From assembly GCA_009377815.1 (NCBI GenBank), contig WHTI01000001.1:20357-84356 (forward strand): DNA of 64,000 bases, given 5' to 3'. Below the pieces are notes generated by a model. The model saw only the letters and a list, made by a program, of their open reading frames with translations, searched no databases and was not told where the DNA came from. The translations under genes were made by a program, and so were the position numbers. Shown one piece after another: positions 32,272 through 57,890 of this stretch (position 1 is the stretch's first letter; each line of letters opens with the position of its first letter). The stretch comes from Actinomycetota bacterium (GTDB taxonomy: Bacteria; Actinomycetota; CADDZG01; WHSQ01).

Positions 32272-33117
32272 ATGCGGGCAGATCGTGCGGGCCTCGGTTC
32301 TTGGTATGGGGAGATCCTCACCGAGAACCGCCTTGGGCATGCTCCGGCCCGAGTCCCGACCCCCTCCTACCGGGTCCTCGGCACCTCGATCGCCGCCGTC
32401 GATCCCGCCCGGGCCGTCGCTCACGTCGAGGGTATGGTCCGGTCCCGCAGCCGGGGGACCATCGCCTTCTGCACCGCCTCTACCGTCCTCGCCGCACGCC
32501 GGGATCCCGATCTCCGCCGGGCGCTGACGAACTCCTCGCTGGTCAATCCGGACGGGATGCCGCTCGTGTGGCTCGGCCGCCGAGCTGGGGTCGAGCTCGA
32601 TCGTGTCTACGGGCCCGATTTCATGCTGGATCTGTTCGCGGCGACCGGATCATCGCTCCGTCACTACTTCTACGGCGGAACCCCGGGTGTGGTCGACGCG
32701 CTGGTCGAGCAATTGAGCGAGCGTTTCCCCGAGATCCAGATCGTCGGGTCCCACACTCCGGAGTTCGGATTGACCGGACGTGATGTCATCGAGGCGGACG
32801 TTGCCCGCATCAACGCCGCGGCGCCCGACATCGTTTGGATCGGTCTCGGACATCCCAAGCAAGAACTCTGGATGGAAACCCACGTGGCGAAGCTGGATGC
32901 CTCGGTCCTCGCGGGGGTCGGGGCTGCGTTCGACTACCTCTCCGGCACCAAGAAGGAAGCGCCCGAGTGGATGAAGCGCTCGGGACTCCAATGGATGCAC
33001 CGGCTGGGATCGGAACCGCGCCGTCTGTGGAAGCGCTACCTCGTGGGCAACTCGACGTTCGTGGCGTTGCTCGTCGCCGAATGGGTCCGCACGGGACGGA
33101 TGGCCCATGTGGACTGA
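32272..33117 (+). CDS. WecB/TagA/CpsF-family glycosyltransferase (ManNAc-transferase type)
   Basis: 'VNPDGMPLVWLGRRAG', 'GHPKQELWM' and 'PEWMKRSGLQWMHRL' are family signatures. 11-nt overlap with the next gene. Confidence 0.85.
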   Translation: MRADRAGLGSWYGEILTENRLGHAPARVPTPSYRVLGTSIAAVDPARAVAHVEGMVRSRSRGTIAFCTASTVLAARRDPDLRRALTNSSLVNPDGMPLVWLGRRAGVELDRVYGPDFMLDLFAATGSSLRHYFYGGTPGVVDALVEQLSERFPEIQIVGSHTPEFGLTGRDVIEADVARINAAAPDIVWIGLGHPKQELWMETHVAKLDASVLAGVGAAFDYLSGTKKEAPEWMKRSGLQWMHRLGSEPRRLWKRYLVGNSTFVALLVAEWVRTGRMAHVD

Positions 33118-34219
33118 CGTCGGAGCGCTGCTACTCATAGCCACGGTGGCGTTCGGGACCACCGCTGCTCTCACGCCGGTGGTGCGATGGGTTGCTCTCC
33201 GAGGCGGCATGTCGGACGATCCCAGCCGACGGAGGTTGCATCAGGTCACGACGCCAACGATGGGTGGGATCGCGATCCTCGCCGGTTGGCTCCTCGCCAC
33301 CGCGATCTCCGGCCGGGGAGGCGATCTCTGGGCGCTGCTCGTCTGCGCCGGGGCTCTCGGCGTCATGGGATTCATCGACGACCGCTTCCATCTCGACGAG
33401 CACCTGCGGCTGGTTCTCCAGGTTCTCATCGCCGGCTTCGCGTGGGGGCATGGCTTCGGCCTCGAACTCTTCGGAACTCCCGGACTCAACCTGATCGTGT
33501 CGCTCTTGTGGTTGGTTGGGATCACCAACGCGTTCAACTTCATGGACAACATGGATGGCCTGGCATCCGGAGCCGGAGCCGTGGCCGCTACGACCCTGGC
33601 CGCGCTGGGTCTGTTCGCCGGAGACATCGGGATCGCGTTCGTCGCCATCGCACTCGCCGGTGCGCTGGCCGGTTTCCTGCCGCACAACTTCCACCCGGCG
33701 CGCATCTTCATGGGCGATACCGGCAGCCTCCCGCTGGGCTTCGCACTCGCGGCGCTCGGGGCGCGCCTATCGACCGACGGGCTCCACCCGTTCGTGGCGA
33801 CCGCCATCCCGGTGGCGGTGCTCGGGATCTTCGTTTTCGACACCTCGCTGATGGCGATCGGAAGGGTTATCCGTCGAGAACCGGTGATCGGCGCCCGGAT
33901 GGACCACACCTCGCATCGACTGTTGGGCACGGGTCTTCCGGTGCGGGCCGTGGCGTTGCGGTTGTATCTGGTTTCGGTTCTCTACTCGACGATCGGCCTG
34001 TCGCTGGCGCTCCTGCCGGCCCAGTGGGCGGTCGCCGTCTGCACGGCAACGTTCGTGGGTAGCGCCCAGGTACTGCTCCGCCTGCTACCGCTTCCGGCCC
34101 TGGTGCGCGAGGGCGATGCTCTGGTTCCGGTGGCCGAACCCACGCCCCGGATGCCACGTTTCCGCCTGTCCGACGCCATCGAGCCGATCACCCTGTCCGA
34201 GGACGCCCTGATCGACTAG
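33107..34219 (+). CDS. MraY/WecA-family polyprenyl-phosphate HexNAc-1-phosphate transferase
   Basis: 'TPTMGGIAILAG', 'NAFNFMDNMDGLASG' and 'FMGDTGSLPLGF'. About 10 TM helices. Confidence 0.9.
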   Translation: MWTDVGALLLIATVAFGTTAALTPVVRWVALRGGMSDDPSRRRLHQVTTPTMGGIAILAGWLLATAISGRGGDLWALLVCAGALGVMGFIDDRFHLDEHLRLVLQVLIAGFAWGHGFGLELFGTPGLNLIVSLLWLVGITNAFNFMDNMDGLASGAGAVAATTLAALGLFAGDIGIAFVAIALAGALAGFLPHNFHPARIFMGDTGSLPLGFALAALGARLSTDGLHPFVATAIPVAVLGIFVFDTSLMAIGRVIRREPVIGARMDHTSHRLLGTGLPVRAVALRLYLVSVLYSTIGLSLALLPAQWAVAVCTATFVGSAQVLLRLLPLPALVREGDALVPVAEPTPRMPRFRLSDAIEPITLSEDALID

Positions 34220-34249
34220 CCCCCTACGGGGTGTCCGGTTTCGCAGTGA

Positions 34250-35737
34250 TTGCGTATTTACTTCGATTGGTCTTATGCCGACATTAGAGGGGTGAGAGGA
34301 GAGGATCGGGGCCGTCCGGCACGGTTGATCGGGGCGCTATGTGGCGCCCTTCTCGCGTTGACCCTCGCCCCGGCCGCCTCGGCCCAGGTGCTCCCCGATC
34401 TGCCCGAGTTCCCGGATCTCTGCGTCCCGGTCCCGCCCGGCGCCGACCTCCCCACGCTGGTCGACGCCTCACTGCCCGGCCAGAGCTTCTGCCTCGATGC
34501 CGGGCTCCACAGGGTCTCCAGGACGATCCGCCCGAAGGCCGACCAGAGTTTCATCGGCGCCCCCGGCGCGGTGCTCTCCGGCGCGATCTCCGTTGTTGGA
34601 TTCACCTCGACCTCGGGAGCGTTCTCCGCTCCCGCGCCCATCGTCGAACCGGTGATGCGTGGGGAGTGCCGGGATGCAACCTCCGGTCTCTGCCGCATCC
34701 CCAACACCGTGTTCGTGGACGACGTCCCGATGGTCCCGGCGCCCTCGCTCGACGAACTCGATGCCGGCGAGTCGTTCCTCGACTACGACACCGCGGCGCT
34801 CTACCTCGCCGAGGAGCCGGCGGGTTCCGAGGTCGAGGTGGCCTCGACGCCATTCGCCTTCTACGGCATCAATCTCGGAACCGGGACGCCCGGGGTGTCG
34901 ATCTCGGGCCTGGTGATCGAGAAGTTCGCCAACCTCGCCCAGTCCGGAGCCATCTCGACCTACACCGGCACCGACTGGCGGATCGAAGACAACGAGATCC
35001 GCCTCAATCATGGGTGCGGCATTTGGTCGGGTAGCGGAGCCGTGGTGAGCGGTAACTACGTCCATCACAACGGTCAGCTCGGACTCTGCGGTCAGGGCGA
35101 CTCGATCCTGGTCGAGAACAACGAGATCTCCTTCAACAACAACAAGGGGTTCGATCCGCGCTGGGAGGCCGGCGGTTCGAAGTGGGTCAACACCACCGAC
35201 CTGATCGTCCGCGGCAACCACTCGCACAACAACTACGGTCCCGGCCTCTGGACCGACATAAACAACCTGGACGTTCTCTACGACGGGAACCTGATCGAGT
35301 TCAACGAGAACGAAGGCATCCTCCACGAGATCTCCTACCGCGCCGTGATCCGCGGCAACACGATCCGGCGAAACGGACTCACCGCGTCGAAGGGCGTCGC
35401 CGGCTCCGGGATCACGATCTCAACGTCACGAGACGTGACCGTGACCGGCAACCGCATCGCCAAGAACCGCAACGGCATCCTGCTCCGCTCCGACGACCGA
35501 GGAACCGGAACGCACGGCCTCTATCTCCTCGAGAACGTCCGGGTCGCCGCCAACCGCATCCGCATGACCCGAGGCTTCACCGGCGTTCTGGGATCCGCAG
35601 CAGGCTCCTCGGTGTACTCAGGCGTCACGTTCGAAAACAACACCTACCGGGTGGGCAAGAAGAAGAAGGCCTTCCGGTGGCGAGATCGCATGCTCACCCT
35701 CCGGGGCTGGCGATCCCAAGGCAACGACCGCCCCTGA
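34250..35737 (+). CDS. secreted right-handed beta-helix repeat protein (possible glycan lyase/hydrolase/epimerase)
   Basis: Signal 'GALLALTLAPAASA|Q'. Repeated 'NxIxxNxxxGI' turns, e.g. 'GNYVHHNGQLGLCG', 'NNEISFNNNKGF', 'GNHSHNNYGPGLW', 'GNLIEFNENEGI'. Start uncertain: 34250, or GTG 34292. Confidence 0.7.
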   Translation: MRIYFDWSYADIRGVRGEDRGRPARLIGALCGALLALTLAPAASAQVLPDLPEFPDLCVPVPPGADLPTLVDASLPGQSFCLDAGLHRVSRTIRPKADQSFIGAPGAVLSGAISVVGFTSTSGAFSAPAPIVEPVMRGECRDATSGLCRIPNTVFVDDVPMVPAPSLDELDAGESFLDYDTAALYLAEEPAGSEVEVASTPFAFYGINLGTGTPGVSISGLVIEKFANLAQSGAISTYTGTDWRIEDNEIRLNHGCGIWSGSGAVVSGNYVHHNGQLGLCGQGDSILVENNEISFNNNKGFDPRWEAGGSKWVNTTDLIVRGNHSHNNYGPGLWTDINNLDVLYDGNLIEFNENEGILHEISYRAVIRGNTIRRNGLTASKGVAGSGITISTSRDVTVTGNRIAKNRNGILLRSDDRGTGTHGLYLLENVRVAANRIRMTRGFTGVLGSAAGSSVYSGVTFENNTYRVGKKKKAFRWRDRMLTLRGWRSQGNDRP

Positions 35738-35861
35738 TGCTTCAGGCTCTCAGCCACTGGTGATCCGTCCGGACCGAAAAAAGTTCAGAAATCTTCGACG
35801 ATCGCCTCGAAATGGCCCGTTTCGGGCGTCTCGTGTCACACCCCCTCGTCAGAATGAAGGG

Positions 35862-37055
35862 ATGAAAACCACCCACGAGGCCCGCGCGGTCGAGTCTCTG
35901 AAGAAGGCGAACTCGGAGCTCGAGCCGGACCTAATCTCCATCCCCGAGGCCAAGGCACGTATGAAGGACTTCATCCAGGCCCAGCGCCTGGCCGCCTTCG
36001 GGGTCGCCGCTCTGGCAGGCAAGATCGACGACGCCGAGTCCCTCGCGCGAGCTACCGGCACCTCGATAGGCAAGGCCAAGGAAACCCTGGCGACGAGCGA
36101 AGTCCTGGCCAGCTCCGCGCCGTTGAACGCAGCTCTACGCAGCGGCGAGGTGTCCTTGGATCAAGCAACCGAGATCGCTCGCGCCGAAGGTGCCGCTCCC
36201 GGCTCCGCCAAGGAGCTCCTCAAGGTCGCTAAGAAGGAGTCGTTCCACGTGCTGAGGGACGAGGCCCGCAGGACCAAGCTCGAAGCCGAGCAGCACCAGG
36301 GCCTGGCGGAGCGACAGCGGAAGGCCCGGCGGTCTTCGCATCACGCCGACGAACTCGGCATGGTCAACGTCCACCTGTCATTCGAGCCTCACATCGGAGC
36401 ACCAATCATGACTCGTGCCGAAGCCGGGGCGGAGAGGTTGGCCCGAGCCGCCAAGAAGGCAGGCGGCGAGGTGGAACCCTTCGAGCGCTATCTCGCCGAT
36501 GCCTACGCCGAACTGATCGAGGGATCGGGCAAGGGACGGGCCAAGCGCCCCGAGCTGGTGATCCTGGTCAGCCACGAGGTCGCCACGCGCGGATGGACCG
36601 AGGTTCGCAAGGGCGAGGTGTGCAAGATCCCCGGAATCGGCCCGGTAGCTCCCGAGATCGCCAAGGAGATCGCCAAAGATGCGTTCCTCAACGGCGTGTT
36701 CTACGACGGAAAGGACCTCCGTCACTTCAAGCGCTGGGGACGCTCCACCCCGGTCGAGATCAGCGTCGCCCTGGAGTTGGGCAAGGCTCCCGAGTTCAAG
36801 GGCGTCCGGTGCGTCGACTGCGGCAACAGCTTCAGGCCCCAGTTCGACCACATCGAACCGGTCGCCGCGCGGGGACCAACCGCACACTTCAACTTCGACC
36901 CGCGCTGCGACCCCTGCCACAAAGCCAAGACCGCCCGCGACCGGCGCGCCGGGAAACTCAAACCCAAGACCAAACCCAAGGCGGCGACGAGAAAACCCAA
37001 AGCCACGACCACCCGCACCCGCCGCAGCGCCACGGCGAACCCGAACGCCCCCTAG
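35862..37055 (+). CDS. DUF222-HNH endonuclease (13E12-repeat-like selfish gene)
   Basis: Start at ATG 35862, after GAAGGG. The long helical N-terminus and 'CVDCGNSFRPQFDHIEPVAARGPTAHFNFDPRCDPCHKAKT' (HNH Cys/His pattern) match actinobacterial DUF222-HNH proteins. Lys/Thr/Pro-rich basic tail. Confidence 0.8.
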   Translation: MKTTHEARAVESLKKANSELEPDLISIPEAKARMKDFIQAQRLAAFGVAALAGKIDDAESLARATGTSIGKAKETLATSEVLASSAPLNAALRSGEVSLDQATEIARAEGAAPGSAKELLKVAKKESFHVLRDEARRTKLEAEQHQGLAERQRKARRSSHHADELGMVNVHLSFEPHIGAPIMTRAEAGAERLARAAKKAGGEVEPFERYLADAYAELIEGSGKGRAKRPELVILVSHEVATRGWTEVRKGEVCKIPGIGPVAPEIAKEIAKDAFLNGVFYDGKDLRHFKRWGRSTPVEISVALELGKAPEFKGVRCVDCGNSFRPQFDHIEPVAARGPTAHFNFDPRCDPCHKAKTARDRRAGKLKPKTKPKAATRKPKATTTRTRRSATANPNAP

Positions 37056-37284: not shown

Positions 37285-38097
37285 ATGGCGCAGACCGTCA
37301 TCTTCCTGCACGTCCCACGCACGGCCGGGACCTCGTTGGGGAGCATCCTCGGACGGCAGTACCCGAAAGGGTCGATCTACCGGGGTGGCCTCCTCAAGGA
37401 TGAGGACCTGGCGTCTTTCCGCGCGCTCGATGAGGGCCGGAGGGAAAGCCTGGCCCTGGTCGACGGCCACATGCTGTTCGGCCTCCACGAAGACATCCCC
37501 GGGGATTCGACCTACATCACGTTCCTTCGGTCTCCGGTTGATCGGGTGGTCTCGTATTTCTTCTATCTGAAGCGGCGGCCCCAGACACCGCTCAACAAGA
37601 GGATCGAATCGCAGAACCTCGATCTCCGAGCGTTCGTTGAACGAGCTGAAGCGCGTCTTCACACCCACGATGGAGCCACCAGGATGATCTCGGGCGGGGG
37701 TCTGGACGCGTTCGAGGAGGATCCGGACGGGATGCTGGAACGTGCGAAGGCCAACCTCGAGGCGTCGTTCTCATGTGTTGGATTGTCCGAACGCTTCGAC
37801 GAGTCCGTCCTTCTTCTGAAGGCGGAGCTCGGGTGGTCCCGGCCCGTGATGTACGCACGCAAGAACGTCACCGCGGCGCGTACGTCCCTCGATGATCTGA
37901 GCTCGGCGGAGCGTACCGCGATCGAACAGGTGAACCAGCACGACATGGAGCTGTACGAGTTCGCCAAGTCGTTGTTCGAACGGCGACTCGCGGCGCACAC
38001 GACGATCGACAGCGAGATCGCGCGGCTGCGGAGGATGAACGCCTTCTACCGACCGGCAGCCGGAGCGAAGGCTAGGGTCCTGGGCAGGGTCCGGTGA
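37285..38097 (+). CDS. sulfotransferase family protein (ST1)
   Basis: Start at ATG 37285. The longer ORF from 36679 overlaps the HNH gene and looks non-coding there. 5'-PSB-like 'FLHVPRTAGTS' and 3'-PB-like 'FLRSPVDRVVSYFFY' PAPS-binding motifs. Confidence 0.75.
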   Translation: MAQTVIFLHVPRTAGTSLGSILGRQYPKGSIYRGGLLKDEDLASFRALDEGRRESLALVDGHMLFGLHEDIPGDSTYITFLRSPVDRVVSYFFYLKRRPQTPLNKRIESQNLDLRAFVERAEARLHTHDGATRMISGGGLDAFEEDPDGMLERAKANLEASFSCVGLSERFDESVLLLKAELGWSRPVMYARKNVTAARTSLDDLSSAERTAIEQVNQHDMELYEFAKSLFERRLAAHTTIDSEIARLRRMNAFYRPAAGAKARVLGRVR

Positions 38098-39287
38098 GGC
38101 TGCTGGCGACCGCGTACGCGTGCGAGCCGAACCGAGGCTCGGAGCCGGGGGCGGGCTGGGCATTGGCGCGTTCCCTCGCGTCGTTCGCGGACACACACGT
38201 GATCACACGCACCGGCTACCGGGAGGCGATCGAGGCTGAGCTGCCGCACATCCCCGAGCGCGACTCGCTGCACTTCCACTACGTGCAGCTGCCGCGCCGG
38301 GCGGCGTTCTACAAGAAAGGTCAACGAGGGATCCGTCTCCACTACATATTGTGGCTCCGGGCGGCACACGCGGTAGCCAACGAATTGTCCGGCCGGCACG
38401 ACTTCGACGCTGCGTGGCACCTCACGATGGCGAACGCATGGCTCGGCTCTCCCGGGGGTCCGGATGGGATGCCGTTCATCTATGGCCCCGTCGGCGGAGG
38501 AGTGGTGCCGCCGGCCGGGCTGTTGCTCTCGCTCGGGCCGCGGGGCATGGCCTACGAAGGGACGCGTCTCGCCATGCGCGCAGGCTTCCGTTATCTGAAC
38601 CCCATGGCGCGGTCGGCCGTGAAGAGAAGCTCTGCCGTGTTGGTGCAGAATCCGGATACCGCCGCGTTCCTCCCTCGCAAACAACGAGGCAAAGCTCTCG
38701 TGTTCCAGAATGCACTGTTCCCGGGGAACCCTCCGGGCACTCGTCCCTCTGGCAGTCGTCCACGCGTTGCGTTGTTCGCGTCTCGACTGCTCGCGTGGAA
38801 GGGAGCGCATCTCGCCGTGGGCGCGCTTGAGTACGCTCCGGCCTGGCGGTTGATCATCTGCGGGGACGGACCAGACGGAGCGCGTCTGCGGCGCATCGTC
38901 GAACGTTCGCCGGCGCGGGAGCGCATCGAGCTCCGCGGCGCGGTGAGCCGGGACGAGGTGCTGCGCACGATGCGTGAGGAAGCCGGAGCATTCATCCTCC
39001 CCAGCCTCCACGACGACTCTCCGCTGGCGGTCGCCGAGGCGGTTGCCTCCGGACTTCCGGTCGTATGCCTTGACCGGGGTGGTCCGCCGATCGTTGCCGG
39101 AGGGGCGGGGATCGCGGTGGAGGCCGCCGGTCGGCGCGTGACCGAGCAGCGTCTGGCGAACGCGCTCGAGGCATCGCTGGATCTCGAGATCCCCACCGAT
39201 GAGGCGGCGCGGTTGTCACTGGCACAGGCGAGTGATCGCCTCGCAAGCATCGTCAAATCGGTGCTCAGGGAACCGGCTCCCGCATGA
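38094..39287 (+). CDS. glycosyltransferase family 4 (GT-B)
   Basis: 'RLLATAYACEPNRGSEPGAGW' N-terminus, typical of one GT4 subgroup. C-terminal 'LPSLHDDSPLAVAEAVASGLPVV' (E-x7-E region). GTGA overlap with ST1. Confidence 0.8.
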   Translation: MRLLATAYACEPNRGSEPGAGWALARSLASFADTHVITRTGYREAIEAELPHIPERDSLHFHYVQLPRRAAFYKKGQRGIRLHYILWLRAAHAVANELSGRHDFDAAWHLTMANAWLGSPGGPDGMPFIYGPVGGGVVPPAGLLLSLGPRGMAYEGTRLAMRAGFRYLNPMARSAVKRSSAVLVQNPDTAAFLPRKQRGKALVFQNALFPGNPPGTRPSGSRPRVALFASRLLAWKGAHLAVGALEYAPAWRLIICGDGPDGARLRRIVERSPARERIELRGAVSRDEVLRTMREEAGAFILPSLHDDSPLAVAEAVASGLPVVCLDRGGPPIVAGGAGIAVEAAGRRVTEQRLANALEASLDLEIPTDEAARLSLAQASDRLASIVKSVLREPAPA

Positions 39288-40354
39288 AAGTCCTCCACTT
39301 CTTCCCCCAAACCCTCACCGCCGATGGGGGCCCGGCGTTGTCGGTTCGAGGCTGGGCCCGCGGCATGGCCCGAGCTGGAGCCGAGGTATCCGTCGCGTGC
39401 GCCGGCGGGAACATGGCCGGCACCCAGGAAGGCGTGACCTTCCGGAGCGTCGCTCTCAGGGCCCGGCATTCACTGCAGTACCCCAGCGGCCTAAGGGAGC
39501 TCCTCCCCGGCCACGACGTGCTGTTCCTCCACTCCGGCTGGACGCCCTACAACCTGTGGGGGGCGAAGCTCGCCCGACGCGCCGGTGTGCCCTACGTGTT
39601 GGTCCCGCACGGCGCCTACGAGCCCGACGTGCTGGCCCGAAGCAGGGCGACCAAGCTCCTGTGGCGAACCACTTCGGAGAGGACGGTGATCGAAGGAGCG
39701 TCCGCGGTGCACATCTTCTTCGAGCAGGAGCAGCGCAACATCAGTGCAGTGGGGGCCGAGTGCCCCGTACTCGTCGCGCCCAACGCCGTCGATGTGCCCC
39801 TCGATCGGAGCTGGGACGGCGGGAGCGGCGGCTACCTCTTGTGGATCGGGCGCTACGACATCCACCACAAGGGACTCGACATCCTCATCGACGCGTTCTC
39901 TAGCCTCCCGACCCCCCGCCCCCCGCTGGTTATGCGCGGTACGGGAGAGCAAGGCCGTGCGGAACTCGAGCGCTACGCGGAGAAGCGCGGCGTGCACGAC
40001 GTCCTGATCGAGGGCCCCGTAGAGGGCGACGACAAATGGGATCACTTCTGCCGGGCGCGGGCGTTCGCCTTCGCCTCGCGGTACGACTCCCACTCGATCG
40101 CGATCATGGAGGCCGCCGCCCTCGGGGTGCCGATCGCCGCTGCGGACAACACCTACGTGGGTGAGTTTCTCGCCTCGCAGGGAGCGGCGGCCGGTGCTCC
40201 TGCCGAACCGGATGCCTTCGCGCGGGCACTCGCCGACGTCCTGTCCGAGAACGGGATCAGTTACGGGGCGACGGCCGGCTACCTGGTGCGCTCCTCGGTC
40301 TCGTGGGAGTCCTCGGCTCGCAACCTGCTGGGCCAGCTCGAGGCGGTCCTATGA
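39284..40354 (+). CDS. glycosyltransferase family 4 (GT-B)
   Basis: 'MKVLHFFPQ...GGPA' N-terminus and 'ASRYDSHSIAIMEAAALGVPI' (E-x7-E-like). ATGA overlap on both sides. Confidence 0.8.
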   Translation: MKVLHFFPQTLTADGGPALSVRGWARGMARAGAEVSVACAGGNMAGTQEGVTFRSVALRARHSLQYPSGLRELLPGHDVLFLHSGWTPYNLWGAKLARRAGVPYVLVPHGAYEPDVLARSRATKLLWRTTSERTVIEGASAVHIFFEQEQRNISAVGAECPVLVAPNAVDVPLDRSWDGGSGGYLLWIGRYDIHHKGLDILIDAFSSLPTPRPPLVMRGTGEQGRAELERYAEKRGVHDVLIEGPVEGDDKWDHFCRARAFAFASRYDSHSIAIMEAAALGVPIAAADNTYVGEFLASQGAAAGAPAEPDAFARALADVLSENGISYGATAGYLVRSSVSWESSARNLLGQLEAVL

Positions 40355-43868: not shown

Positions 43869-43874
43869 CTCGCA

Positions 43875-50446: not shown

Positions 50447-51261
50447 GCGTTCTGACCCCGTCGTTCGGCTACGCCCGGTTCATCAGTGATGCGATCAGAA
50501 GCGTGGTGCTCCAAGAGAGTCTGAAAGTGGAGCACGTGATCCAGGATGGAGCGTCCACCGATGGGACCACCGACGTTTTGGACCGGTACGGATCGCTCGG
50601 CTGGGTGAGTGAGCCCGACACCGGCCAGTCGCAAGCTTTGAACCGGGCCCTCGCGCGGGCCGGTGGTCGGTGGATCGCCTGGCTCAACGCCGACGAGTTC
50701 TATCTTCCCGGCGCCCTGGCGCGACTGGTCGAGGAGGGAGATCGCTCGGGAGCGGACCTCGTCTATGGGGATGCGGTGTTCTGCGACGAGCACGGCCGGT
50801 TCCTCCGAGGGCTGCCGCAACATCGGTTCTCGCCCTTCGTCCTGCAGCACTATGGGCCCTATATCTCTTCGTGCGCCATGATCGTCCGGCGTGAGGCTCT
50901 CGAGGATCGTCCCTTCGACGAGTCGCTCCGGGTCGTGATGGATCATGACCTCTACCTGTCGTTGGCGGCGAACGGGGGCCGGATCCGGTACGTCGCCGGC
51001 GGGGTCGGGGTGTTCCGGGTCCACGATGAGAGGGTCACCTCGGGACCCGAAGACGACTACCGGGACGAACGCGAGAAGCTCGCGGCGCGCTACGGGTTCT
51101 CTACCGGATCACTCAGCCGGTTCGCGGGGCGAGGTCTGCACCGGTTGCTGAAGCTGACCTCCGGCGCCTACTTCCGGCAGATGTCGTCGCGCCGACGGCG
51201 CGGCGCAGACCTCAGATGGTTCGAAGAAGCGGCGCATCCCCGCGCCGACGTGACGCCGTAA
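50437..51261 (+). CDS. glycosyltransferase family 2
   Basis: 'VSVLTPSFGYARFISDAIRSVVLQESLKVEHVIQDGASTDGT' and 'LNADE'. 10-nt overlap with the upstream gene. Confidence 0.8.
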   Translation: MDVSVLTPSFGYARFISDAIRSVVLQESLKVEHVIQDGASTDGTTDVLDRYGSLGWVSEPDTGQSQALNRALARAGGRWIAWLNADEFYLPGALARLVEEGDRSGADLVYGDAVFCDEHGRFLRGLPQHRFSPFVLQHYGPYISSCAMIVRREALEDRPFDESLRVVMDHDLYLSLAANGGRIRYVAGGVGVFRVHDERVTSGPEDDYRDEREKLAARYGFSTGSLSRFAGRGLHRLLKLTSGAYFRQMSSRRRRGADLRWFEEAAHPRADVTP

Positions 51262-52396
51262 GGGCCCCGTAAAGAGCTTCCAGTTCCCGCCGGTGGGCCG
51301 AAGCGCCATAGGTGTCGGTTACCGCTCGAAGGCCGGCGGTCCCCAGTTCCTCGCAACGGGACGTGTCGTTCTGCAGATGACGGATCGCAACCGCGAGCAA
51401 GGTCGCGTCTCCGGTGGGGAACGCAAGGCCCGCTCCGGTGGCGACGAGCTCGCGCAGACCTCCGTTCGATGCCGCGATGAGGGGGCGGCCCAGTGCCATC
51501 GCCTCGAGCGCGGACAGCGGTGCGTTCTCGTCCCACAACGACGGCACGACCACGTAGCGAGCGTCCTCCACCAGGGACCGGGCATCCTGCTCCGGCACCA
51601 TCCCTGCGAAGCGCACCCCCCGCAGGCCGAGGCGAGCGGCGCGATCGACCAGCGCGCCGTGTTCGGGCCCGGTTCCCGCGATCACGAACGGGGGATCGTC
51701 CGCCCCCCGGAGAGCGTCGATCAGTACGTCCACACCCTTCTCGGGGACCAACCGGCCGAGGTAGAGGCCGTAGCTTCCCGCGGCACTCGTCGCCCTGGGC
51801 TCCTCGTTGATGAAGTTGGGGATCGTTGCGATCCGGCCGGCTCCGATCCCCCATGACAGAAGTCGTTCCCGCATGAATCTGCTCGGAGCGATGAACGCGT
51901 CGACGTGTCGTTCGAGGCGCAGTCCGACCCGATGCATCCACAGGGCACCGGCGTAGCCGGCGGCCTGGGTTCGGGTTGGGAAGCATCCGTGCATCAACGA
52001 GTGTGCGTAGTTCCCACCTAGACAGCGCGTGCAGTTCTTACCTTCGGTGAACATGAGGCCGTTCGGGCACCGCAACCTGAAGTTGTGGATCGTCTGGATC
52101 AGCGGGGTCTTCGTTCGCCGGCACGCGAGATGAACCGCAGGACCGAACGCGGGATACGGGTTGTGGAGGTGGACGATGTCGGGGCCGAACGACGAGATCG
52201 CGTCCACAACCTCGCCGACGGCGGCTCGGGAGTAAGCCATCGCCGCCGCGGTCCGGGCCTTCTGAGGGAGGTGGGTGTTGCTCCGTTCGAGGAGCTGGAC
52301 GTCGTGCTGCTTGCCCAGCAGCTCCATCTGGCGCTCGACGTACCGGTTCTCACCACCGGGAAGGCGGTGGAACGCGTGTGCGATCAGGATCCGCAT
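51212..52396 (-). CDS. glycosyltransferase family 4 (GT-B)
   Basis: 'MRILIAHAFHRLPGGENRYV' and 'VPSLWDENAPLSALEAMALGRPLIAS' (E-x7-E). Confidence 0.8.
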   Translation of the reverse strand: MRILIAHAFHRLPGGENRYVERQMELLGKQHDVQLLERSNTHLPQKARTAAAMAYSRAAVGEVVDAISSFGPDIVHLHNPYPAFGPAVHLACRRTKTPLIQTIHNFRLRCPNGLMFTEGKNCTRCLGGNYAHSLMHGCFPTRTQAAGYAGALWMHRVGLRLERHVDAFIAPSRFMRERLLSWGIGAGRIATIPNFINEEPRATSAAGSYGLYLGRLVPEKGVDVLIDALRGADDPPFVIAGTGPEHGALVDRAARLGLRGVRFAGMVPEQDARSLVEDARYVVVPSLWDENAPLSALEAMALGRPLIAASNGGLRELVATGAGLAFPTGDATLLAVAIRHLQNDTSRCEELGTAGLRAVTDTYGASAHRRELEALYGALTASRRRGDAPLLRTI

Positions 52397-52399: not shown

Positions 52400-54205
52400 C
52401 TAGCGGGCGCCGGCGCGACCGCGGAGGAGCCTCAGCTTGTCCCCGGAAGCAACTCCGTTGCCCCCGTTGAGTGACGGCTGGTAGCCGTAGCCGGGCTGCT
52501 TGTAGGGGTGATAGCCGGTCCCCGGGCGCGCGATCCCATTGACCACGATGCCGGTGACGTCACAGCCAACCTGAGCGAGTTCCCGGACCGCGTTCTGTTC
52601 GGTGTCGCGATCAGCGCGACGGGAGTCCATCACGAGCAGGGCCTGCGGGATGCGGGAGGCGAGAACGGTTGCGTCGGCGACCGGAAGGATCGGCGCGGAG
52701 TCAACGATGACGAAGTCGAAGTTCTCTTCCAGAGCGCCGATCAGCTTGGTCATCCGAACGGAAGACAGGAGTTCCGCCGGGTTGGCCACCAGCGGCCCCG
52801 ATGGGATGACCAAGAGGTTGGCGACCGACGGACCCCACGTGAGGTTCTCGATGCTCAGTGCTCCCGAGTTTGTCAGCCATTGAGACAGACCCTGCCCCTC
52901 GGCCGGGATGTTGAAGAAGGATTCGATCGCAGGGCGCCTCAGGTCGGCCGAGAGGAGAACCGTTCGGGCTCCGATCTGTGCGAGGCCGACCGCGAGGTTG
53001 ACTGCGGTGGTGGTCTTCCCCTCACCGGCGCCTGCGCTGCTGATGAGAAGCGACTTGAACCCGGATCGATGCGCAAGGGCTTCGACGTTGATCCGCAGAC
53101 TCCGGTAAGACTCACTGGCTGCTCCGTACGGATCGGCGATCAGTGGGATAGCGGAGGCACGGTCCTTGCGTGCGACCTTGAAATGGGGGATCGCTGCCAA
53201 GACCGGAGCGCCTATGGCCGTCTCGAAGTCGCCTCGACTCCGGAGCCGGTCGTCGAGCCGGTGCCTCAGGAATGCCGCCCCGATCCCCGTGATCAGACCG
53301 ATGAGCAGTCCGAAGATCGCATCGTTCCGGTGGTTCGGGGATGAGGGGTGGAGCGATTCGCCGGCGGGCTGAATGATCCGGCCGCCTCCGAGGGCGATCG
53401 CACGATCGGGCTGAAGGTCTTCGAGTTCCTGCTGGAGGATCCCGAGGCGGGCGAGAAGCGAGGCACGCTCACCCTGAAACACCGACCGTTCGTCTTCGTC
53501 CCCGCGCTTGCTCGCGTCATCGATCTCCGCGTTCACGGTGGTCAGCTGACGCTCGACGTTGTCGATCCGATCGCGGATAGACTCTTGCGCGCCGAGGATC
53601 CGCTCGAGCACCTGCTCCTGTTGGTACGTGATGTAAGCCTGCGCGAATCCGTTCGCGAGTCGCGCGGCGCGTTCCGGAGACGATGCCGAGTACCCGACCT
53701 CGATGACCTCACTGTCGGGCACCGGTTGCACGGACAAGCCGGCAAGCAGCGAAGCGGGAGGCTCGTCCAGTCCGAGTTCGCTCGCCACGAGCGATGCAAC
53801 GGAGGTCGAGCGGATCAACTCACTTTCGGTTTGCAGGTTCGGCTCGGCCGGGGCGGAGTCGGGAGTCAACTGCAGCGGCTCGACCAGCACCCTGGCGCGC
53901 GATGAGTAGATCTCGGACCGCGAGTAAGAGATGCCGAGTGCGACCCCGGTGCAGAGGATGGCCGCGAACAACACGAGCCATTTCCGAGACCACAGGATGG
54001 CGAGTGACTCACGCAGGTCTACCGGTTGCTGAGACGTGGTGTCCCTCCAGGCGAGCGGGCTTTCTATCTTTCGATACAAGTTCGCTGTACCGGCCCGAAC
54101 TCCTCCACAGAGGCTCCCAAGTAAAGTAAGCAGATGAAGGTTGGAGTGGTCGGAATCGGACATGTGGGACTTCCCACCGCGTCCGTACTCGCACATATCG
54201 GACAC
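52400..54205 (-). CDS. polysaccharide co-polymerase / BY-kinase fusion (Wzz domain + CpsD/CapB-type tyrosine autokinase)
   Basis: Wzz-like 'LRESLAILWSRKWLVLFAAIL'. Walker A 'SAGAGEGKTTTAVNLA', A' 'VLLSADLRRP', Walker B 'FVIVDSAPILP'. Tyr-rich tail 'YHPYKQPGYGYQ'. The real start is probably internal (e.g. TTG 54079), because 54134-54205 overlaps the divergent ugd. Confidence 0.85.
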   Translation of the reverse strand: MSDMCEYGRGGKSHMSDSDHSNLHLLTLLGSLCGGVRAGTANLYRKIESPLAWRDTTSQQPVDLRESLAILWSRKWLVLFAAILCTGVALGISYSRSEIYSSRARVLVEPLQLTPDSAPAEPNLQTESELIRSTSVASLVASELGLDEPPASLLAGLSVQPVPDSEVIEVGYSASSPERAARLANGFAQAYITYQQEQVLERILGAQESIRDRIDNVERQLTTVNAEIDDASKRGDEDERSVFQGERASLLARLGILQQELEDLQPDRAIALGGGRIIQPAGESLHPSSPNHRNDAIFGLLIGLITGIGAAFLRHRLDDRLRSRGDFETAIGAPVLAAIPHFKVARKDRASAIPLIADPYGAASESYRSLRINVEALAHRSGFKSLLISSAGAGEGKTTTAVNLAVGLAQIGARTVLLSADLRRPAIESFFNIPAEGQGLSQWLTNSGALSIENLTWGPSVANLLVIPSGPLVANPAELLSSVRMTKLIGALEENFDFVIVDSAPILPVADATVLASRIPQALLVMDSRRADRDTEQNAVRELAQVGCDVTGIVVNGIARPGTGYHPYKQPGYGYQPSLNGGNGVASGDKLRLLRGRAGAR

Positions 54206-55459
54206 GAGGTCACTGCGATCGATTCCGATCGGCAGAAACTCGAGGCTCTGCGGGCCGGCGATCTGCCCTACTTCGAGCCGGGGCTCGCCGAACTCGTCGA
54301 CGAGGGGCGGGCCAACGGCCGGCTGAAGTTCGTCACCGACTTCGAGGATCTCGTGGCCGGAGCCGAGGTGGTCTTCGTGTGTGTCGGAACGCCCCCTCGG
54401 TCCTCCGGGGGAGCCAATCTCCTCGCAGTAGAGAAGGCCGCGCGGGCGGTTGCCGAGGTCGCCGACGGACGCGTCGTGGTGGCCGAGAAGAGCACGGTTC
54501 CTGCGGGGACCGCCGAACGGGTCGCCCGGACGCTCGATCGCTACCGGCGATCGGCGGAGTTCCTCGTCGTTTCGAATCCCGAGTTCCTCAGGGAAGGCAG
54601 CGCGGTCAACGACTCTCTCACTCCCGACCGGATCCTGGTGGGGGCCGAGTCGCCGGAAGCGCTCGAGGTCATGAAGCGCCTCTACTCACCTCTGATCGAG
54701 AAGGGTGCCCGGTGGATCGCAACCGATCTCCGCACTGCCGAGTTAGCCAAGCACGCGTGCAATGCGTTCTTGGCCCTGAAGGTCTCCTACATCAACGCTC
54801 TGGCTCGCATCTGCGAGCTGTCGTCGGCGGATGTGACCGACGTTGCGGAGATCATGGGATCGGATCCACGCATCGGCCCGGCGTTCCTCGATGCAGGCAT
54901 CGGTTACGGCGGCTATTGCTTCCCGAAGGACCTGGCGGCGTTCGACCGGCTCGCCCGGCAACTCGGCTACGAGTTCCCACTGCTCGGCGAGATAGCGCGC
55001 ATCAACGATGAGGCCCTACAAGCTGCGTTCGACAAGATCGAGACCGCGCTCTGGAATCTCGAGGAGAAGCGCGTTGCGTTACTCGGCCTGTCGTTCAAGC
55101 CCGGGACCAGTGACACGAGGTTGTCGCCGTCGCTGGAACTCGCACGCAAGTTGATCGCGGCCGGTGCCACCGTGTGCGGATACGACCCGGCGGCAGGGTC
55201 CGTGGCAGCGAGCGAGGTTGACGGGATCGAAGTGGTGGACGACCTTTACGAGGTGTTCAAGGGGGCCGACTGCGCGGTGATCTGCACCGCGTGGGACGAG
55301 TTCAAGACCATCGATCTCGCCCGGGCACGGCAAGCGATGGCAATCCCGATCCTGGTCGATGGACGCAACCTCCTCGATGGCGGCGCGGTTGCCGCCCAAG
55401 GGTTCACCTACATCCCCACCGGCCGGAGCGGTCTCGAGCCCGACCCCACAGCTCGATGA
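54134..55459 (+). CDS. ugd: UDP-glucose 6-dehydrogenase family protein
   Basis: '[16 protein letters not shown]' Rossmann fold, catalytic '[10 protein letters not shown]', '[13 protein letters not shown]'. Confidence 0.9.
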
Positions 55460-56385
55460 GGGCGGTCGTTACCGGCGGCAGCGGGTTCCTCGGCTCCCAT
55501 CTCTGTCGCAGGTTGCTCGCCGAAGGTCTCGAGGTCGCCTGTCTCGACTCCATGCTCACCGGGGTCCCCGCGAACGTCGCGGAGCTCGAGAAGGAGCCCG
55601 GTTTCTCCCTTCAGCGGGTGGACGTCACCGACGAGCTGCAGGTTGACGGATCCATGGATTGGATCTTCCACTTCGCGTCGCCCGCGTCGCCTCCCGACTA
55701 TCTCGAGTACCCCATCGAGACCCTCAAGGTGGGGGCGATCGGAACCTGGAGGGCTCTGGGCCTGGCCCGGGCCAAGGGCGCGGGACTTCTGCTGGCGTCG
55801 ACCTCGGAGGTCTACGGCGATCCGGAGATCCACCCGCAGCCCGAGAGCTACTGGGGGAATGTGAACCCGATCGGTCCCCGAGGTGTGTACGACGAGGCGA
55901 AGCGCTACGCGGAGGCGATGACCACCGCGTATCACCACAAGCACGGAGTCCCGATCCGGATCGTGAGGATCTTCAACACCTACGGCCCCCGGATGCGCCG
56001 CCGCGACGGACGAGCGGTCCCCAACTTCATCTCGCAGGCGATGGACGGGGACCCCCTCACCGTCCACGGCGACGGTTCGCAAACGCGGTCGCTCTGCTAC
56101 GTGGACGACCTCATGGAAGGGATCTGGAGATTGCTGAACTCCGATATCGCGACGCCGGTGAACATCGGGAATCCCGAAGAGGTCACCGTGCTCGCGCTGG
56201 CGGAGTCGATCAGGGACCTAACGGGCTCGGCTTCCGAGATCGTGTTCCAGCCCCGGCCTCAAGACGACCCCGAGGTCCGATGCCCGGACATCACTCTTGC
56301 CAGGACGCGACTGGGATGGGAGCCGAGGGTCCCGTTGTCCGAGGGCCTCGACCGCACGATCGACTGGGCGCGTACCGGCTGGTAG
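55456..56385 (+). CDS. UDP-glucuronate decarboxylase (UDP-xylose synthase) type SDR
   Basis: '[13 protein letters not shown]' and '[39 protein letters not shown]' match UXS-type enzymes closely. ATGA overlap with ugd. Confidence 0.85.
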
Positions 56386-56388
56386 GTG

Positions 56389-57039
56389 CTACTCGGTCTT
56401 GTCGTACTCGCCGATGAACTCGTCGATCCGTTCGCTCATGAGGAGATCGGAGTTGTCGGCGATCCTCTTGTCGGGCCAATCCCACCAACGGATCCGCAAG
56501 AGCGCTTCGACCTGTTCGTCGGTGAAACGGCGCTTGATCTCGCGCGCCGGGTTCCCGACCATGACCGCGTAGGGCCTTACATCCTTGGCGATAACGGCCC
56601 CCGCCCCGATCACCGCGCCGTCGCCGATCGTGACGCCCGAAAGGATCTTGGCCGCGAACCCGACCCACACGTCGCTGCCGAGGACGATGTTTCCCTTGCT
56701 GAATGGGCCGTCGATGCCCCGCGGCCCGCGGTCGTAGATCATCCGCAGAGGTAGGTGGGCGATCCAGTCGGAGCGGTGCTCCGATCCGGGCATGAACTCA
56801 CTGTCGTTGGCGCAGCCGGAGAAGTTGCCGATGATGACTTTCGCCTTGACCCCGGCGTCCTTGTAGTAGTGAACGAACGGCCGGCCGATGAAATGGCGAC
56901 CGGTTTCGATGGCGCCGAGCTCGACGAGACGATCGAAGTCGAGATACGCGACCTCACGGCCGAGCATCCTCTGGTAGGCCCCAACGCCCGCCGTCCGAAG
57001 CCTCCGCTTCAACCGTTGCTTGATCCCCATGGGCGACAT
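56389..57039 (-). CDS. hexapeptide-repeat O-acetyltransferase (XAT/CatB-related), copy 2
   Basis: '[70 protein letters not shown]'. Confidence 0.85.
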
Positions 57040-57098
57040 TCTTACCTGCTCCGGACTCCGAGGCCACAGGCGAGGTAGGGCTCGGCTACGCTCCGTCG

Positions 57099-57890
57099 AT
57101 GGAGAGAGCGAAGAGAACCGCTTTGATCACCGGCGCCTCTGGCGGTATCGGCGAGGCCCTGGCGCGCGAATGTGCGGGGGCCGGGATGAACGTCGTGCTC
57201 GTCGCTCGGAGCGAAGACAGGCTGAAGGCGCTCGGCGAGCAGCTGTCGGGCGAGCACGGCATCAGTGCGACACCCGTCGCTACCGATCTCAGCGATGCCG
57301 ACGCGCCGCCGGCGATCAAAAGGGCTCTCGAGGCCTCGGGAATCACCGTCGACGTGTTGATCAACAACGCGGGCTTCGCAACCTTCGGACCGTTCGTCGA
57401 GACGGATGCATCGGAAGAACTCGATGAGATTCAACTCAATGTGACCGCCCTCACGCATCTGACGAAGCTGTTCGCTCCAGGGATGGTCGAGCGCGGCTGG
57501 GGGAGGGTGATGAACGTTGCGTCGACCGCCGCGTTCCAGCCCGGTCCCCTGATGGCGGTCTATTACGCGACCAAGGCCTACGTCCTGTCGTTCTCGGAGG
57601 CGCTGAGTGAGGAGATGAGGGGCACCGGGGTGACCGTCACGGCGTTCTGTCCGGGTCCGACCGCATCTGGGTTCCAGGCGCGCGCTGCGATGGAGGACTC
57701 TAAGCTCGTCCTCGGCCGGAAGATGCCGGATGCGGCGACCGTGGCCGCGGACGGCTTCAAGGCGATGATGGCCGGGAAGCCGGTCTACATCCACGGCCTC
57801 CGGAACCGCCTCATCGCACAATCGATCAGGTTCTCACCGCGCGCACTCGTGCGGCCGATGGTCAAACGCCTGCAGGAGCGCGTCCACTAG
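57099..57890 (+). CDS. short-chain dehydrogenase/reductase (classical SDR)
   Basis: '[15 protein letters not shown]', 'NNAG' and 'YYATKAYV' (YxxxK). Confidence 0.85.

Follow-up and report, generated by a model that had tools for sequence, protein, structure and literature searches.

In textbook accounts two routes of polysaccharide export are held separate: the Wzx/Wzy route polymerises repeat units outside the cell, whereas the ATP-binding cassette (ABC) route makes and caps the polymer inside and then exports it. The window studied here, a stretch of 64,000 nucleotides (64 kb) of contig WHTI01000001.1 from an uncultured soil bacterium of the Actinomycetota (assembly GCA_009377815.1), holds at positions 32272-57890 a glycan locus in which a Wzm-Wzt ABC exporter stands together with a Wzy_C-family membrane protein (WzyC) and a bacterial tyrosine kinase (BY-kinase). 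Is this one pathway built from parts of both routes, or do two pathways lie interleaved? An earlier sequence-only reading had noticed this mix of components without a flippase in one locus, and the components were confirmed here. Judging from gene order and orthology in related loci, the window carries one integrated and conserved locus type, an actinobacterial Wzy/BY-kinase/DUF4012 heteropolysaccharide locus in which the flippase Wzx was replaced in situ by Wzm-Wzt.

The G+C content of the window is about 64-66%, and the coding frame of each stretch was chosen by third-position GC. The chosen open reading frames (ORFs) over the whole 64 kb were annotated by Pfam scans. All relatives are metagenomic, and identities to them were taken from BLAST, including reciprocal BLAST for the loci of the family. 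By Pfam, glycan genes make up 22 of the 24 ORFs in 32272-57890, which bears out the earlier claim of nearly all-glycan content; every component then listed was recovered in its place.

Exporter position in the locus family

The comparison turns on the following genes, where GT stands for glycosyltransferase and PCP for polysaccharide co-polymerase.

46062-46883, + strand: Wzm, ABC-2 permease (PF01061, E 3.7e-19)
46883-48133, + strand: Wzt, with a nucleotide-binding domain (NBD) at residues ~1-250 and a divergent Wzt_C domain at residues ~263-370 (PF00005, E 4.3e-21)
48133-49092, + strand: GT2b (PF00535); its start overlaps the Wzt stop (TGATG)
49076-50446, + strand: WzyC, Wzy_C-family polytopic membrane protein (PF04932, E 4.2e-13)
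50437-51261, + strand: GT2c (PF00535); its start overlaps the WzyC stop; orthologues of 47-56% in all family loci
51212-52396, - strand: GT4d, of the conserved set (Pfam GT4; orthologues of 34-48%)
52400-54079 (TTG start) or 52400-54163 (ATG start), - strand: fused PCP-2-type co-polymerase and BY-kinase (Wzz, GNVR and the P-loop domain AAA_31)
24467-26311, + strand: DUF4012 protein a (PF13196, E 2.6e-29), with one N-terminal hydrophobic segment and a large extracytoplasmic domain
30238 (maybe 30331)-32172, + strand: DUF4012 protein b (PF13196, E 1e-30)

The contexts of seven members of the WzyC subfamily (loci L083 and L165-L170) were compared with the window. Nine window genes, namely those for the TagA-family GT, GT4a, GT2a, GT2b, GT2c, GT4d, Wzy_C, BY-kinase and DUF4012, have orthologues at 34-57% identity in Wzx/Wzy loci of the family (L167, L168, L165, L083). 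Among the Wzx-type loci the fullest set of shared genes is that of L167 (GT4a 49%, GT2c 47%, GT2b 50%, Wzy_C 35%, GT4d 34%, TagA 52%, DUF4012 40%, kinase 42%), which also holds Wzx, a methyltransferase and PHPT. In L083, L165 and L170 the order is Wzx, GT2b, Wzy_C, and behind these the arrangement of GT2c and GT4d varies; the Wzx proteins of these three loci and L167 are mutually orthologous (38-51%). Locus L169, on a 268-kb contig of which 21 kb were examined, is a distant ABC form, with orthologues of 16 window genes at 38-61%: Wzm 61%, Wzt 52% (with a weak Wzt_C match), GT2b 55%, Wzy_C 40%, GT2c 56%, GT4d 48%, GT4a 43%, two sulfotransferases 38-41%, GT4b 42%, GT4c 46%, an FkbM methyltransferase 44%, an acetyltransferase 57%, GT2a 54%, TagA 52% and a beta-helix protein 44%.

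The slot directly upstream of the GT2b-Wzy_C pair is thus filled in two ways: with orthologous Wzx in L083, L165, L167 and L170, and with Wzm-Wzt in the window, in its close relatives L001 and L002/L084, and in the distant L169. The GT2b orthologues (48-57%) lie directly 3' of Wzx in the former four loci and directly 3' of Wzt in L169. The coupling of the exporter to GT2b is likewise retained, as a TGATG overlap in the window and as 4-nt overlaps in L083, L167 and L169. Clear orthologues of FkbM and of the acetyltransferase AT1 were found only in ABC-form loci, and FkbM was not called in the Wzx-type-family loci L083, L165, L167, L168 and L170. The same restriction to ABC-form loci holds for GT4b and GT4c, for which L168 gave weak 30% matches (partial for GT4b). 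By orthology, the exporter travels with an accessory block of GT4b, GT4c, FkbM, two sulfotransferases, an acetyltransferase and the beta-helix protein, and only Wzm-Wzt and this block are foreign to the Wzy-type core. This suggests that a Wzy-type locus swapped Wzx for Wzm-Wzt with its block, rather than that an ABC locus recruited a co-polymerase. The earlier proposal of an ABC pathway with a recruited co-polymerase/kinase and ligase-like protein therefore fits in one part, since a functional merger suits the data better than interleaving, but its direction does not agree with the exporter swap that the comparisons suggest.

Close relatives were found by a Wzt scan with one genome per species. 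A Wzt identical at 96% occurs in the uncultured Actinomycetes metagenome-assembled genome MFD04212.bin.2.127, whose contigs are L001 and L002; together with another contig, L084, they run colinear to the window over 34.1-57.9 kb at 80-86% nucleotide identity. In L002 the protein matches around Wzm/Wzt were fragmented and of low identity, which was treated as poor assembly and not as biology. Compared with L001, the window has a dS of about 0.55, and dN/dS is 0.134 for WzyC, 0.147 for the BY-kinase, 0.040 for Wzt, 0.058 for Wzm, and 0.07-0.27 for the glycosyltransferases and sulfotransferase ST1 (ST1 alone 0.085). WzyC and the BY-kinase are intact and under purifying selection, neither decayed nor relaxed; decay of either gene was considered and ruled out by these values of 0.13-0.15 and the intact motifs. 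The synteny check that had been proposed for the mixed locus came out in its favour, in L001, L002 and L084 and also in distant L169. The hybrid is no accident of neighbourhood or decay, because it is colinear in three close relatives and in L169 and because purifying selection acts on both Wzy_C and the kinase.

Kinase homologues were surveyed in 83 loci, three contexts (L080-L082) and 80 loci from a metagenome scan. Their neighbours included DUF4012 in 19 loci, a WecA-family gene in 13 and PHPT in 11, and Wzm or Wzt in none. Seventeen kinase loci are flanked on either side by 2.5 kb or more; DUF4012 was present in six of these and an ABC exporter in none. Conversely, no BY-kinase or WzyC homologue was found in the 77 other Wzt-homologue loci. 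The combination of Wzm-Wzt with BY-kinase and WzyC is rare outside this locus family, as these two zero counts show.

No Wzx/MOP, LCP (LytR-CpsA-Psr), PHPT or tyrosine phosphatase was present among the ORFs scanned with Pfam across the window. Six-frame tblastn of the 64 kb with relatives' Wzx, PHPT and low-molecular-weight tyrosine phosphatase (LMW-PTP) gave no match below E 0.4, and when four Wzx proteins of the family served as tblastn queries, no match at E<0.1 turned up in L001, L002, L084, L169 or the window. The only polytopic membrane proteins in 20-62 kb are WecA, Wzm and WzyC. The gaps noticed from the letters alone (flippase, LCP ligase, cognate tyrosine phosphatase) are accordingly real within the window, by Pfam and, for Wzx and LMW-PTP, also by tblastn. 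Seen as a Wzx/Wzy pathway, the locus has the Wzy-type fold and the co-polymerase (Wzz, GNVR) but lacks Wzx. Seen as an ABC-dependent pathway, it has the Wzm and Wzt pair and the Wzt_C domain, but such a pathway needs no Wzy or PCP-2, and here selected Wzy_C and BY-kinase/PCP genes lie in the same operon set.

One line or two

We tentatively favour, with a confidence just short of even, that the ABC exporter took over the role of the flippase, and that WzyC, the kinase and the DUF4012 proteins act on the exported glycan. This reading is preferred because the like-for-like swap in the slot keeps the overlap with GT2b, because no Wzx is seen in two diverged ABC-form loci, and because the Wzy genes are under selection; from this we infer that Wzm-Wzt, and not an unlinked Wzx, feeds WzyC.

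Several points weigh against it. To our knowledge, no Wzm/Wzt-type exporter has been characterised that supplies a Wzy polymerase. Taken together, GT4b, GT4c, FkbM and Wzm-Wzt resemble a self-contained module for a capped polymer. Where Wzt proteins with a binding domain have been studied, they export polymers that are already complete and capped and for which Wzy is not required (PMC9445017, PMC3482155). Exporters are sometimes unlinked in this locus family, since L168 has the Wzy module (GT2a, GT2b, Wzy_C, GT2c, GT4d, TagA, Wzz) and neither exporter on its 11.7-kb contig. Neither the BY-kinase nor DUF4012 appeared in the 21 kb examined of L169. The absence of Wzx extends only to the 64-kb window, the contigs of its close relatives and the same 21 kb of L169. 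Finally, a neighbour-joining tree of GT2b, WzyC and GT2c is star-like, with 21% support for a clade of the ABC variants, so that it does not separate one swap from several.

Some of the same evidence speaks for two interleaved lines that share WecA. In that case an ABC line (GT4b, GT4c, FkbM, Wzm, Wzt) would export a methyl-capped polymer whole, and a Wzy line (TagA-like GT, GT4a, GT2a-c, GT4d, WzyC, BY-kinase, DUF4012) would make a repeat-unit polymer with the help of an unlinked Wzx. The two products may remain apart or, like the two chains of the wall polysaccharides in lactococci and enterococci, be joined outside the cell. Indeed, the genes split cleanly into a set with Wzx-type orthologues and a set with clear orthologues only in ABC-variant loci; L168 would be the Wzy module without a linked exporter; and precedent for an ABC exporter feeding Wzy is lacking. 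The ABC set resembles Escherichia coli O8/O9a in WecA, GT4s, the terminating methyltransferase and the Wzt binding domain (PMC3482155, PMC9445017), and loci that mix ABC and Wzx/Wzy genes are known in Firmicutes (PMC9574508, PMC7188991). However, two lines would require Wzx to have left exactly where Wzm-Wzt entered, and to have remained unlinked in a pair of lineages whose proteins are 40-60% different. Wzt, GT2b, WzyC and GT2c have stop and start codons that overlap and are read as one operon, and no Wzx lies within 64 kb. We regard two lines as rather unlikely.

The exporter pair

The best match of the Wzt NBD among PDB sequences is the Wzt of Aquifex aeolicus (8DKU, 6AN5; E ~9e-64), followed by TagH/TarH at E 1e-49. 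About 165 residues follow the NBD, and on its own the window sequence misses PF14524 (Wzt_C) at E<=0.01. The family was nevertheless matched by 19 of 21 homologous Wzt C-termini, and a profile of these C-termini matches 8DKY and 6O14 at E ~4e-20 and also 5HNO, the binding domains of A. aeolicus and Raoultella Wzt. When both the window and L001 were left out of a hidden Markov model, it gave the window C-terminus 52.6 bits. By these profile matches Wzt carries a divergent carbohydrate-binding domain of the Wzt_C type, and in studied systems Wzt with such a domain recognises the modified chain end (PMC9445017, PMC3482155).

The Wzm/Wzt and Wzt/GT2b junctions are both TGATG, a one-nucleotide overlap, followed by overlaps of 17 nt between GT2b and WzyC and 10 nt between WzyC and GT2c. 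Since stop and start codons overlap, Wzt-GT2b-WzyC-GT2c is read as one operon. A recent foreign origin of Wzm-Wzt was looked for in base composition and rejected, as the GC of 46-48 kb (0.638) is like that of the whole window.

WzyC, the kinase and the DUF4012 proteins

An exhaustive search defined the WzyC subfamily as 48 cluster representatives at E<=1e-30. The AlphaFold2 model of WzyC from a 52-sequence alignment has pLDDT 90 and pTM 0.89. Its best fold match by Foldseek is the ligase WaaL (7TPG, E 4.6e-8), followed by the SEDS proteins RodA and FtsW, and no Wzy polymerase was among the PDB structures matched. The profile of the subfamily gives a full-length alignment to 7TPG (E 8e-13). As single queries, neither WzyC nor DUF4012b matched any PDB sequence. 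R253 and R317 are invariant, and H365(-N-D) is conserved in at least 90% of the 52 subfamily sequences. Both the fold and the Arg/Arg/His pattern are common to enzymes with undecaprenyl-pyrophosphate donors, polymerases and ligases alike.

WaaL is the only solved relative of WzyC, and WzyC also bears an H-N-x9-G-x2-G motif, which we take to be one of ligases. The pathway could then be purely ABC-dependent, with WzyC as a WaaL/PglL-like ligase that moves a capped polymer to a lipid, protein or wall acceptor and with the kinase only as a regulator, for instance of the UDP-glucose dehydrogenase Ugd. The kinase gene is divergent from ugd, and BY-kinases phosphorylate Ugd in E. coli and Bacillus subtilis. 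There is also a likeness in the slg cluster of Geobacillus, which pairs Wzm/Wzt and a 2-O-methyl cap with a Wzy_C oligosaccharyltransferase, WsaB, proposed to act on the S-layer glycan (PMC2943079). Against a ligase stand the fold and motifs themselves, which do not discriminate because Wzy and WaaL have them in common, the want of an identified acceptor candidate, and L167, in which the WzyC orthologue is the sole candidate polymerase of a complete Wzx/PCP-kinase/PHPT locus. For this last reason WzyC is read as a probable polymerase, and the purely ABC-dependent pathway with a ligase is held to be improbable.

The BY-kinase exceeds the TIGR01007 cut-off (151.5 against 108 bits). Its Walker A, A' and B motifs (GEGKT, SADLRRP, VDSAP) are conserved, the tail GYHPYKQPGYGY has four Tyr, and a coiled region lies between the two hydrophobic segments of this bitopic protein. 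With its Wzz, GNVR and P-loop domains it agrees with the Wzz-BY-kinase with a Tyr-rich tail described at first sight. Orthologues in the close relatives are 89-100% identical; otherwise identities do not exceed 47%. The three contexts L080 (Wzx, GTs, PHPT, kinase, DUF4012, LMW-PTP), L081 (DUF4012, kinase, Wzy_C, Wzx, GT4 genes, FkbM) and L082 (Ugd, kinase, PHPT, Wzy_C) were counted as ordinary Wzx/Wzy loci. The phosphatase domain LMWPc is present in the kinase relatives L080, L093 and L123; in the window neither Pfam nor, for LMW-PTP, tblastn turned up a cognate phosphotyrosine phosphatase, be it LMW-PTP or PHP.

The DUF4012 proteins had been put forward as the missing attachment step. This was not supported: DUF4012 is instead a recurrent neighbour of BY-kinase/Wzz in actinobacterial Wzx/Wzy exopolysaccharide (EPS) loci, as in the eps cluster of Bifidobacterium longum 105-A with the order priming GT, DUF4012, wzz, GTs, wzy, wzx (PMC5412050). 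DUF4012b is 36-49% identical to the DUF4012 proteins beside BY-kinases in L080, L081, L093 and L167. By this association DUF4012 belongs with the BY-kinase, i.e., with the Wzy-type gene set. Two paralogous small Lys-rich secreted proteins with no Pfam match are encoded at 23999-24439 (+) and 29828-30211 (-). Since each of their genes adjoins one DUF4012 gene, a duplicated two-gene unit of Lys-rich protein and DUF4012 is suggested.

Priming enzymes

Two enzymes precede the genes discussed so far.

32272-33117, + strand: WecG/TagA/CpsF-family GT (TagA), second step on the lipid-linked primer (PF03808, E 4.7e-56)
33107-34219, + strand: WecA/MraY-family polyprenyl-phosphate N-acetylhexosamine (HexNAc)-1-phosphate transferase, the priming enzyme (PF00953, E 1.2e-34)

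The WecA-family protein has at least nine hydrophobic segments, and its gene overlaps the TagA stop by 11 nt. The pair had been taken as a signature of wall-teichoic-acid-like polymers. The locus could in that case use a TagO/TagA linkage unit and TagGH-like export, with attachment to peptidoglycan by an LCP protein encoded elsewhere and with Wzy_C and the kinase as bystanders or relics. The overlapping WecA/TagA genes upstream of GT genes and an ABC-2 exporter are in line with this, as is the TagH/TarH match of the Wzt NBD at E 1e-49. However, the TagA-family GT passes the TIGR00696 superfamily cut-off and neither the TarA nor the WecG equivalog, scoring 83.8 bits on TarA (NF041710) where the cut-off is 350, and neither Glyphos_transf (TagB/F) nor LCP matched any scanned ORF. 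TagA orthologues at 52-53% occur in L167, L168 and L169, including loci of the Wzx/Wzy type, and WecA-family genes adjoin BY-kinase genes in the 13 of 83 loci counted above. TagO/TagA priming is also used in Wzy-like models of secondary cell wall polysaccharides (PMC6030368). As TagA orthologues are regular in Wzx-type loci and the TarA threshold is missed widely, the pair is not a teichoic-acid signature. Purifying selection, moreover, acts on WzyC and the kinase, and they are conserved in L169 or L167. A wall-teichoic-acid-like pathway is consequently very improbable, and a teichoic-acid identity of the locus was rejected on the TarA score and the TagA orthologues in Wzx/Wzy loci.

Glycosyltransferases, tailoring and precursor supply

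The other genes of glycan assembly are listed here, together with two secreted beta-helix proteins.

38094-39287, + strand: GT4a, of the conserved repeat-unit GT set (Pfam GT4; orthologues of 43-50% in L083, L167, L169)
39284-40354, + strand: GT4b (Pfam GT4; 42% orthologue in L169)
40351-41442, + strand: GT4c (Pfam GT4; 46% orthologue in L169; ATGA overlap with GT4b)
41439 or 41463 to 42281, + strand: FkbM-family S-adenosylmethionine-dependent methyltransferase (PF05050, E 3.9e-22; weak RfbT match; 44% orthologue in L169)
42274-43200, + strand: GT2a, of the conserved set (PF00535; 54% orthologues in L168, L169)
43197-43868, + strand: hexapeptide-repeat acyltransferase AT1 (Hexapep; 57% orthologue in L169)
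56389-57039, - strand: hexapeptide acyltransferase AT2 (Hexapep; 50% identical to AT1)
37285-38097, + strand: sulfotransferase ST1, cytoplasmic (Gal-3-O_sulfotr, E 5.6e-16; Sulfotransfer_2)
45176-45997, - strand: sulfotransferase ST2, cytoplasmic (Gal-3-O_sulfotr, Sulfotransfer_2; orthologues of 38-41% in L169, 35% in L166)
54134-55459, + strand: UDP-glucose 6-dehydrogenase Ugd (all three UDPG_MGDP_dh domains), divergent from the BY-kinase gene
55456-56385, + strand: UDP-glucuronate decarboxylase UXS (human UXS1, 2B69, E 6.3e-108; ATGA overlap with ugd)
34250-35737, + strand: secreted or anchored right-handed beta-helix protein (Beta_helix, NosD; 79% identity in L001, 44% in L169)
26879-29779, + strand: secreted 966-aa protein with beta-helix/NosD, cadherin-like and RTX regions (Pfam Beta_helix, NosD, HemolysinCabind; N-terminal hydrophobic segment)

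FkbM-like genes lie directly 3' of Wzt in the unrelated Wzt loci L004, L035, L037 and L066, and the FkbM methyltransferase is a candidate cap or terminator of the non-reducing end. ST1 carries PRTAGTS and RSPVDRVVS, and both sulfotransferases carry PRTAG(T/S) and R(S/D)P-x-DRVVS, presumably motifs for binding of 3'-phosphoadenosine 5'-phosphosulfate. Other sulfotransferases of the ST1/ST2 family, with identities of 35-41% to these two, lie beside the WzyC subfamily in L166 (1508-2371), where the Wzy_C gene adjoins the sulfotransferase, and in L169 (720-2304); they are thus seen in the ABC form and in L166. Because ST1/ST2-family enzymes accompany the WzyC subfamily in both loci, sulfation seems to be a recurrent trait of the locus family rather than a peculiarity of the window.

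UXS is genuine, with E 6e-108 to 2B69 and 6e-37 to the next short-chain dehydrogenase/reductase family. Ugd and UXS predict glucuronic acid (GlcA) and xylose (Xyl), and WecA with the TagA-family GT predicts a reducing end based on HexNAc. From the sulfotransferases, acyltransferases and methyltransferase we infer an acidic, sulfated, O-acetylated and O-methylated heteropolysaccharide. The beta-helix protein at 34250-35737 is a candidate glycanase, lyase or epimerase; the 966-aa protein is a candidate glycan-processing enzyme whose membership of the locus is uncertain. RTX calcium-binding repeats occur in two secreted proteins of the window, this one (26879-29779, +) and another at 8271-8855 (-), and are unusual for genomes of the Gram-positive type.

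Proposed route

With the ABC exporter in the role of the flippase, assembly would proceed as follows. WecA would prime polyprenyl phosphate with HexNAc-1-P, and the TagA-family GT with GT4a, GT2a, GT2b, GT2c and GT4d, and with GT4b and GT4c, would build the lipid-linked glycan in the cytoplasm from precursors that include UDP-GlcA and UDP-Xyl from Ugd and UXS. At the cytoplasmic face the glycan would be sulfated, acetylated and methylated, and the C-terminal domain of Wzt may read the methyl or another terminal group before Wzm-Wzt carries the lipid-linked glycan across the membrane. Outside the cell WzyC would join the exported units into longer chains or transfer them to an acceptor, a step that the membrane-anchored BY-kinase/co-polymerase and its DUF4012 partners may control; the kinase may also tune Ugd, encoded divergently opposite. 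It is possible, although we would not call it probable, that Wzm-Wzt with its binding domain serves as the translocase of a Wzy/PCP-BY-kinase machine, such that Wzx and Wzm-Wzt are interchangeable cassettes of one operon slot and ABC export of decorated lipid-linked units or blocks is followed by extracytoplasmic Wzy polymerisation. Such a mixed ABC/Wzy route may be favoured for heavily sulfated units.

Inserted genes and locus borders

Three further genes lie between the priming enzymes and the right border.

35760-37055, + strand: 431-aa protein with a weak C-terminal HNH match (E 2e-4)
43942-45168, + strand: AAA_14/DUF4143 ATPase (Pfam; full-length PADLOC match PDLC04790, E 3.7e-100)
57099-57890, + strand: short-chain dehydrogenase at the edge of the locus (adh_short, E 3.7e-47; 86% identity in L002)

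The first two are the non-glycan ORFs of the locus, and they are exactly the two genes without which L001, L002 and L084 match the window. Both are strain-specific insertions outside the pathway. Where the window has 1.5 kb around the weak-HNH gene, inside the operon between the beta-helix gene and ST1, L001 and L002 have about 50 bp; the 431-aa protein had no NCBIfam or PADLOC match. The AAA_14/DUF4143 gene is inserted between AT1 and ST2 (insertion region 43874-45168), matches the PADLOC candidate anti-phage defence gene PDC-S01, and has three tandem repeats of ~23 bp (TGAAAATGGTACTGARCCCCGCG) directly 5' of its start codon.

Homology to L002 stops at 57890, the same right border as had been drawn at first. 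To the left, the functional locus probably reaches about 24.0 kb, since both DUF4012 genes go with the BY-kinase. Secreted proteins of 387 aa (20066-21229, -) and 854 aa (21299-23863, -), the latter with a Pro/Thr-rich linker, are encoded immediately upstream of DUF4012a. Neither has a Pfam or NCBIfam match, and both may belong to the surface-glycan region. On the right, a PD40/Kelch-like beta-propeller gene (57898-59085, -) stands between the dehydrogenase and a STAND gene; L084 has only ~240 bp there, which makes this a further strain-specific difference at the border of the locus. The STAND-type AAA_16/NB-ARC/TPR protein (59516-61870, -) lies just downstream of the locus, and its 83% orthologue in L084 (3582-6074) bears a GerE (LuxR) DNA-binding domain. 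By analogy it may be a regulator of the locus, since in Synechocystis the cluster for sulfated EPS is activated by a STAND regulator, XssQ (PMC8205485).

Comparison with known systems

The nearest systems are actinobacterial Wzx/Wzy EPS loci. The eps cluster of B. longum 105-A (PMC5412050), L167, L165 and L083 have the same core as the window, i.e., a priming transferase, DUF4012 beside Wzz/BY-kinase, GT2s and GT4s, and a single Wzy_C. The window and L169 differ from such loci in that Wzx is missing and Wzm-Wzt with a binding domain occupies its slot. The window further adds GT4b, GT4c, FkbM, sulfotransferases and an acetyltransferase and has no linked phosphatase; relative to L167 it has WecA in place of PHPT. 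One orthologous locus family thus exists in two forms that differ mainly in the exporter at the same operon position ahead of a GT-polymerase pair. If the ABC form is self-sufficient, exporters are exchangeable in evolution ahead of a Wzy polymerase and its tyrosine-kinase co-polymerase, the two forms make a natural pair of systems in which to probe the substrate needs of Wzx and Wzm-Wzt, and there is a possible path in glyco-engineering for units that Wzx refuses. In addition, the uncharacterised DUF4012 family becomes tied more firmly to BY-kinase systems of monoderm bacteria.

E. coli O8/O9a and the A. aeolicus WzmWzt system (PMC3482155, PMC9445017) are like the window in WecA-type priming, cytoplasmic GT4s, a candidate methyltransferase terminator, Wzm and Wzt_C. 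However, they have no Wzy and no PCP-2/BY-kinase, and WaaL acts there on lipid A-core in a diderm envelope; in the window the binding domain is too divergent for Pfam alone, and no coiled-coil ruler like WbdD is evident. The rhamnose-rich wall polysaccharide loci of Lactococcus, Enterococcus and Streptococcus (PMC9574508, PMC7188991) are likewise Gram-positive, with a TagO/WecA primer and an ABC backbone beside a Wzx/Wzy-type branch. They belong to Firmicutes and differ in having their own flippase for the Wzy branch, no BY-kinase or DUF4012, and rhamnan chemistry. The slg cluster of Geobacillus stearothermophilus (PMC2943079) has a Gram-positive Wzm/Wzt, overlapping wzm-wzt-GT genes and a Wzy_C protein (WsaB) acting after export, and its 2-O-methyl chain termination was predicted to be read by Wzt. 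WsaB, however, is an O-oligosaccharyltransferase on the S-layer protein, in a cluster without BY-kinase, DUF4012 or sulfotransferases, whereas orthologues of the window Wzy_C work with Wzx and a PCP-kinase in the sister loci.

With regard to sulfation, the xss cluster of Synechocystis (synechan, PMC8205485) and wps-1 of Actinoplanes missouriensis (PMC13390465) are like the window in having two cytoplasmic sulfotransferases, a methyltransferase, Wzy and a PCP, and a STAND-type regulator lies nearby in both xss and the window. Both of these clusters use Wzx, in contrast to Wzm-Wzt in the window; chemical proof of sulfation exists for synechan only. Sulfotransferases in EPS clusters were described in 2021 as a cyanobacterial peculiarity (PMC8205485), and the first such proposal for a Wzx/Wzy cluster of an actinomycete dates from 2026 (PMC13390465). 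To this proposal of sulfated exopolysaccharides in actinomycetes the window locus would be a second example and the ABC-linked counterpart.

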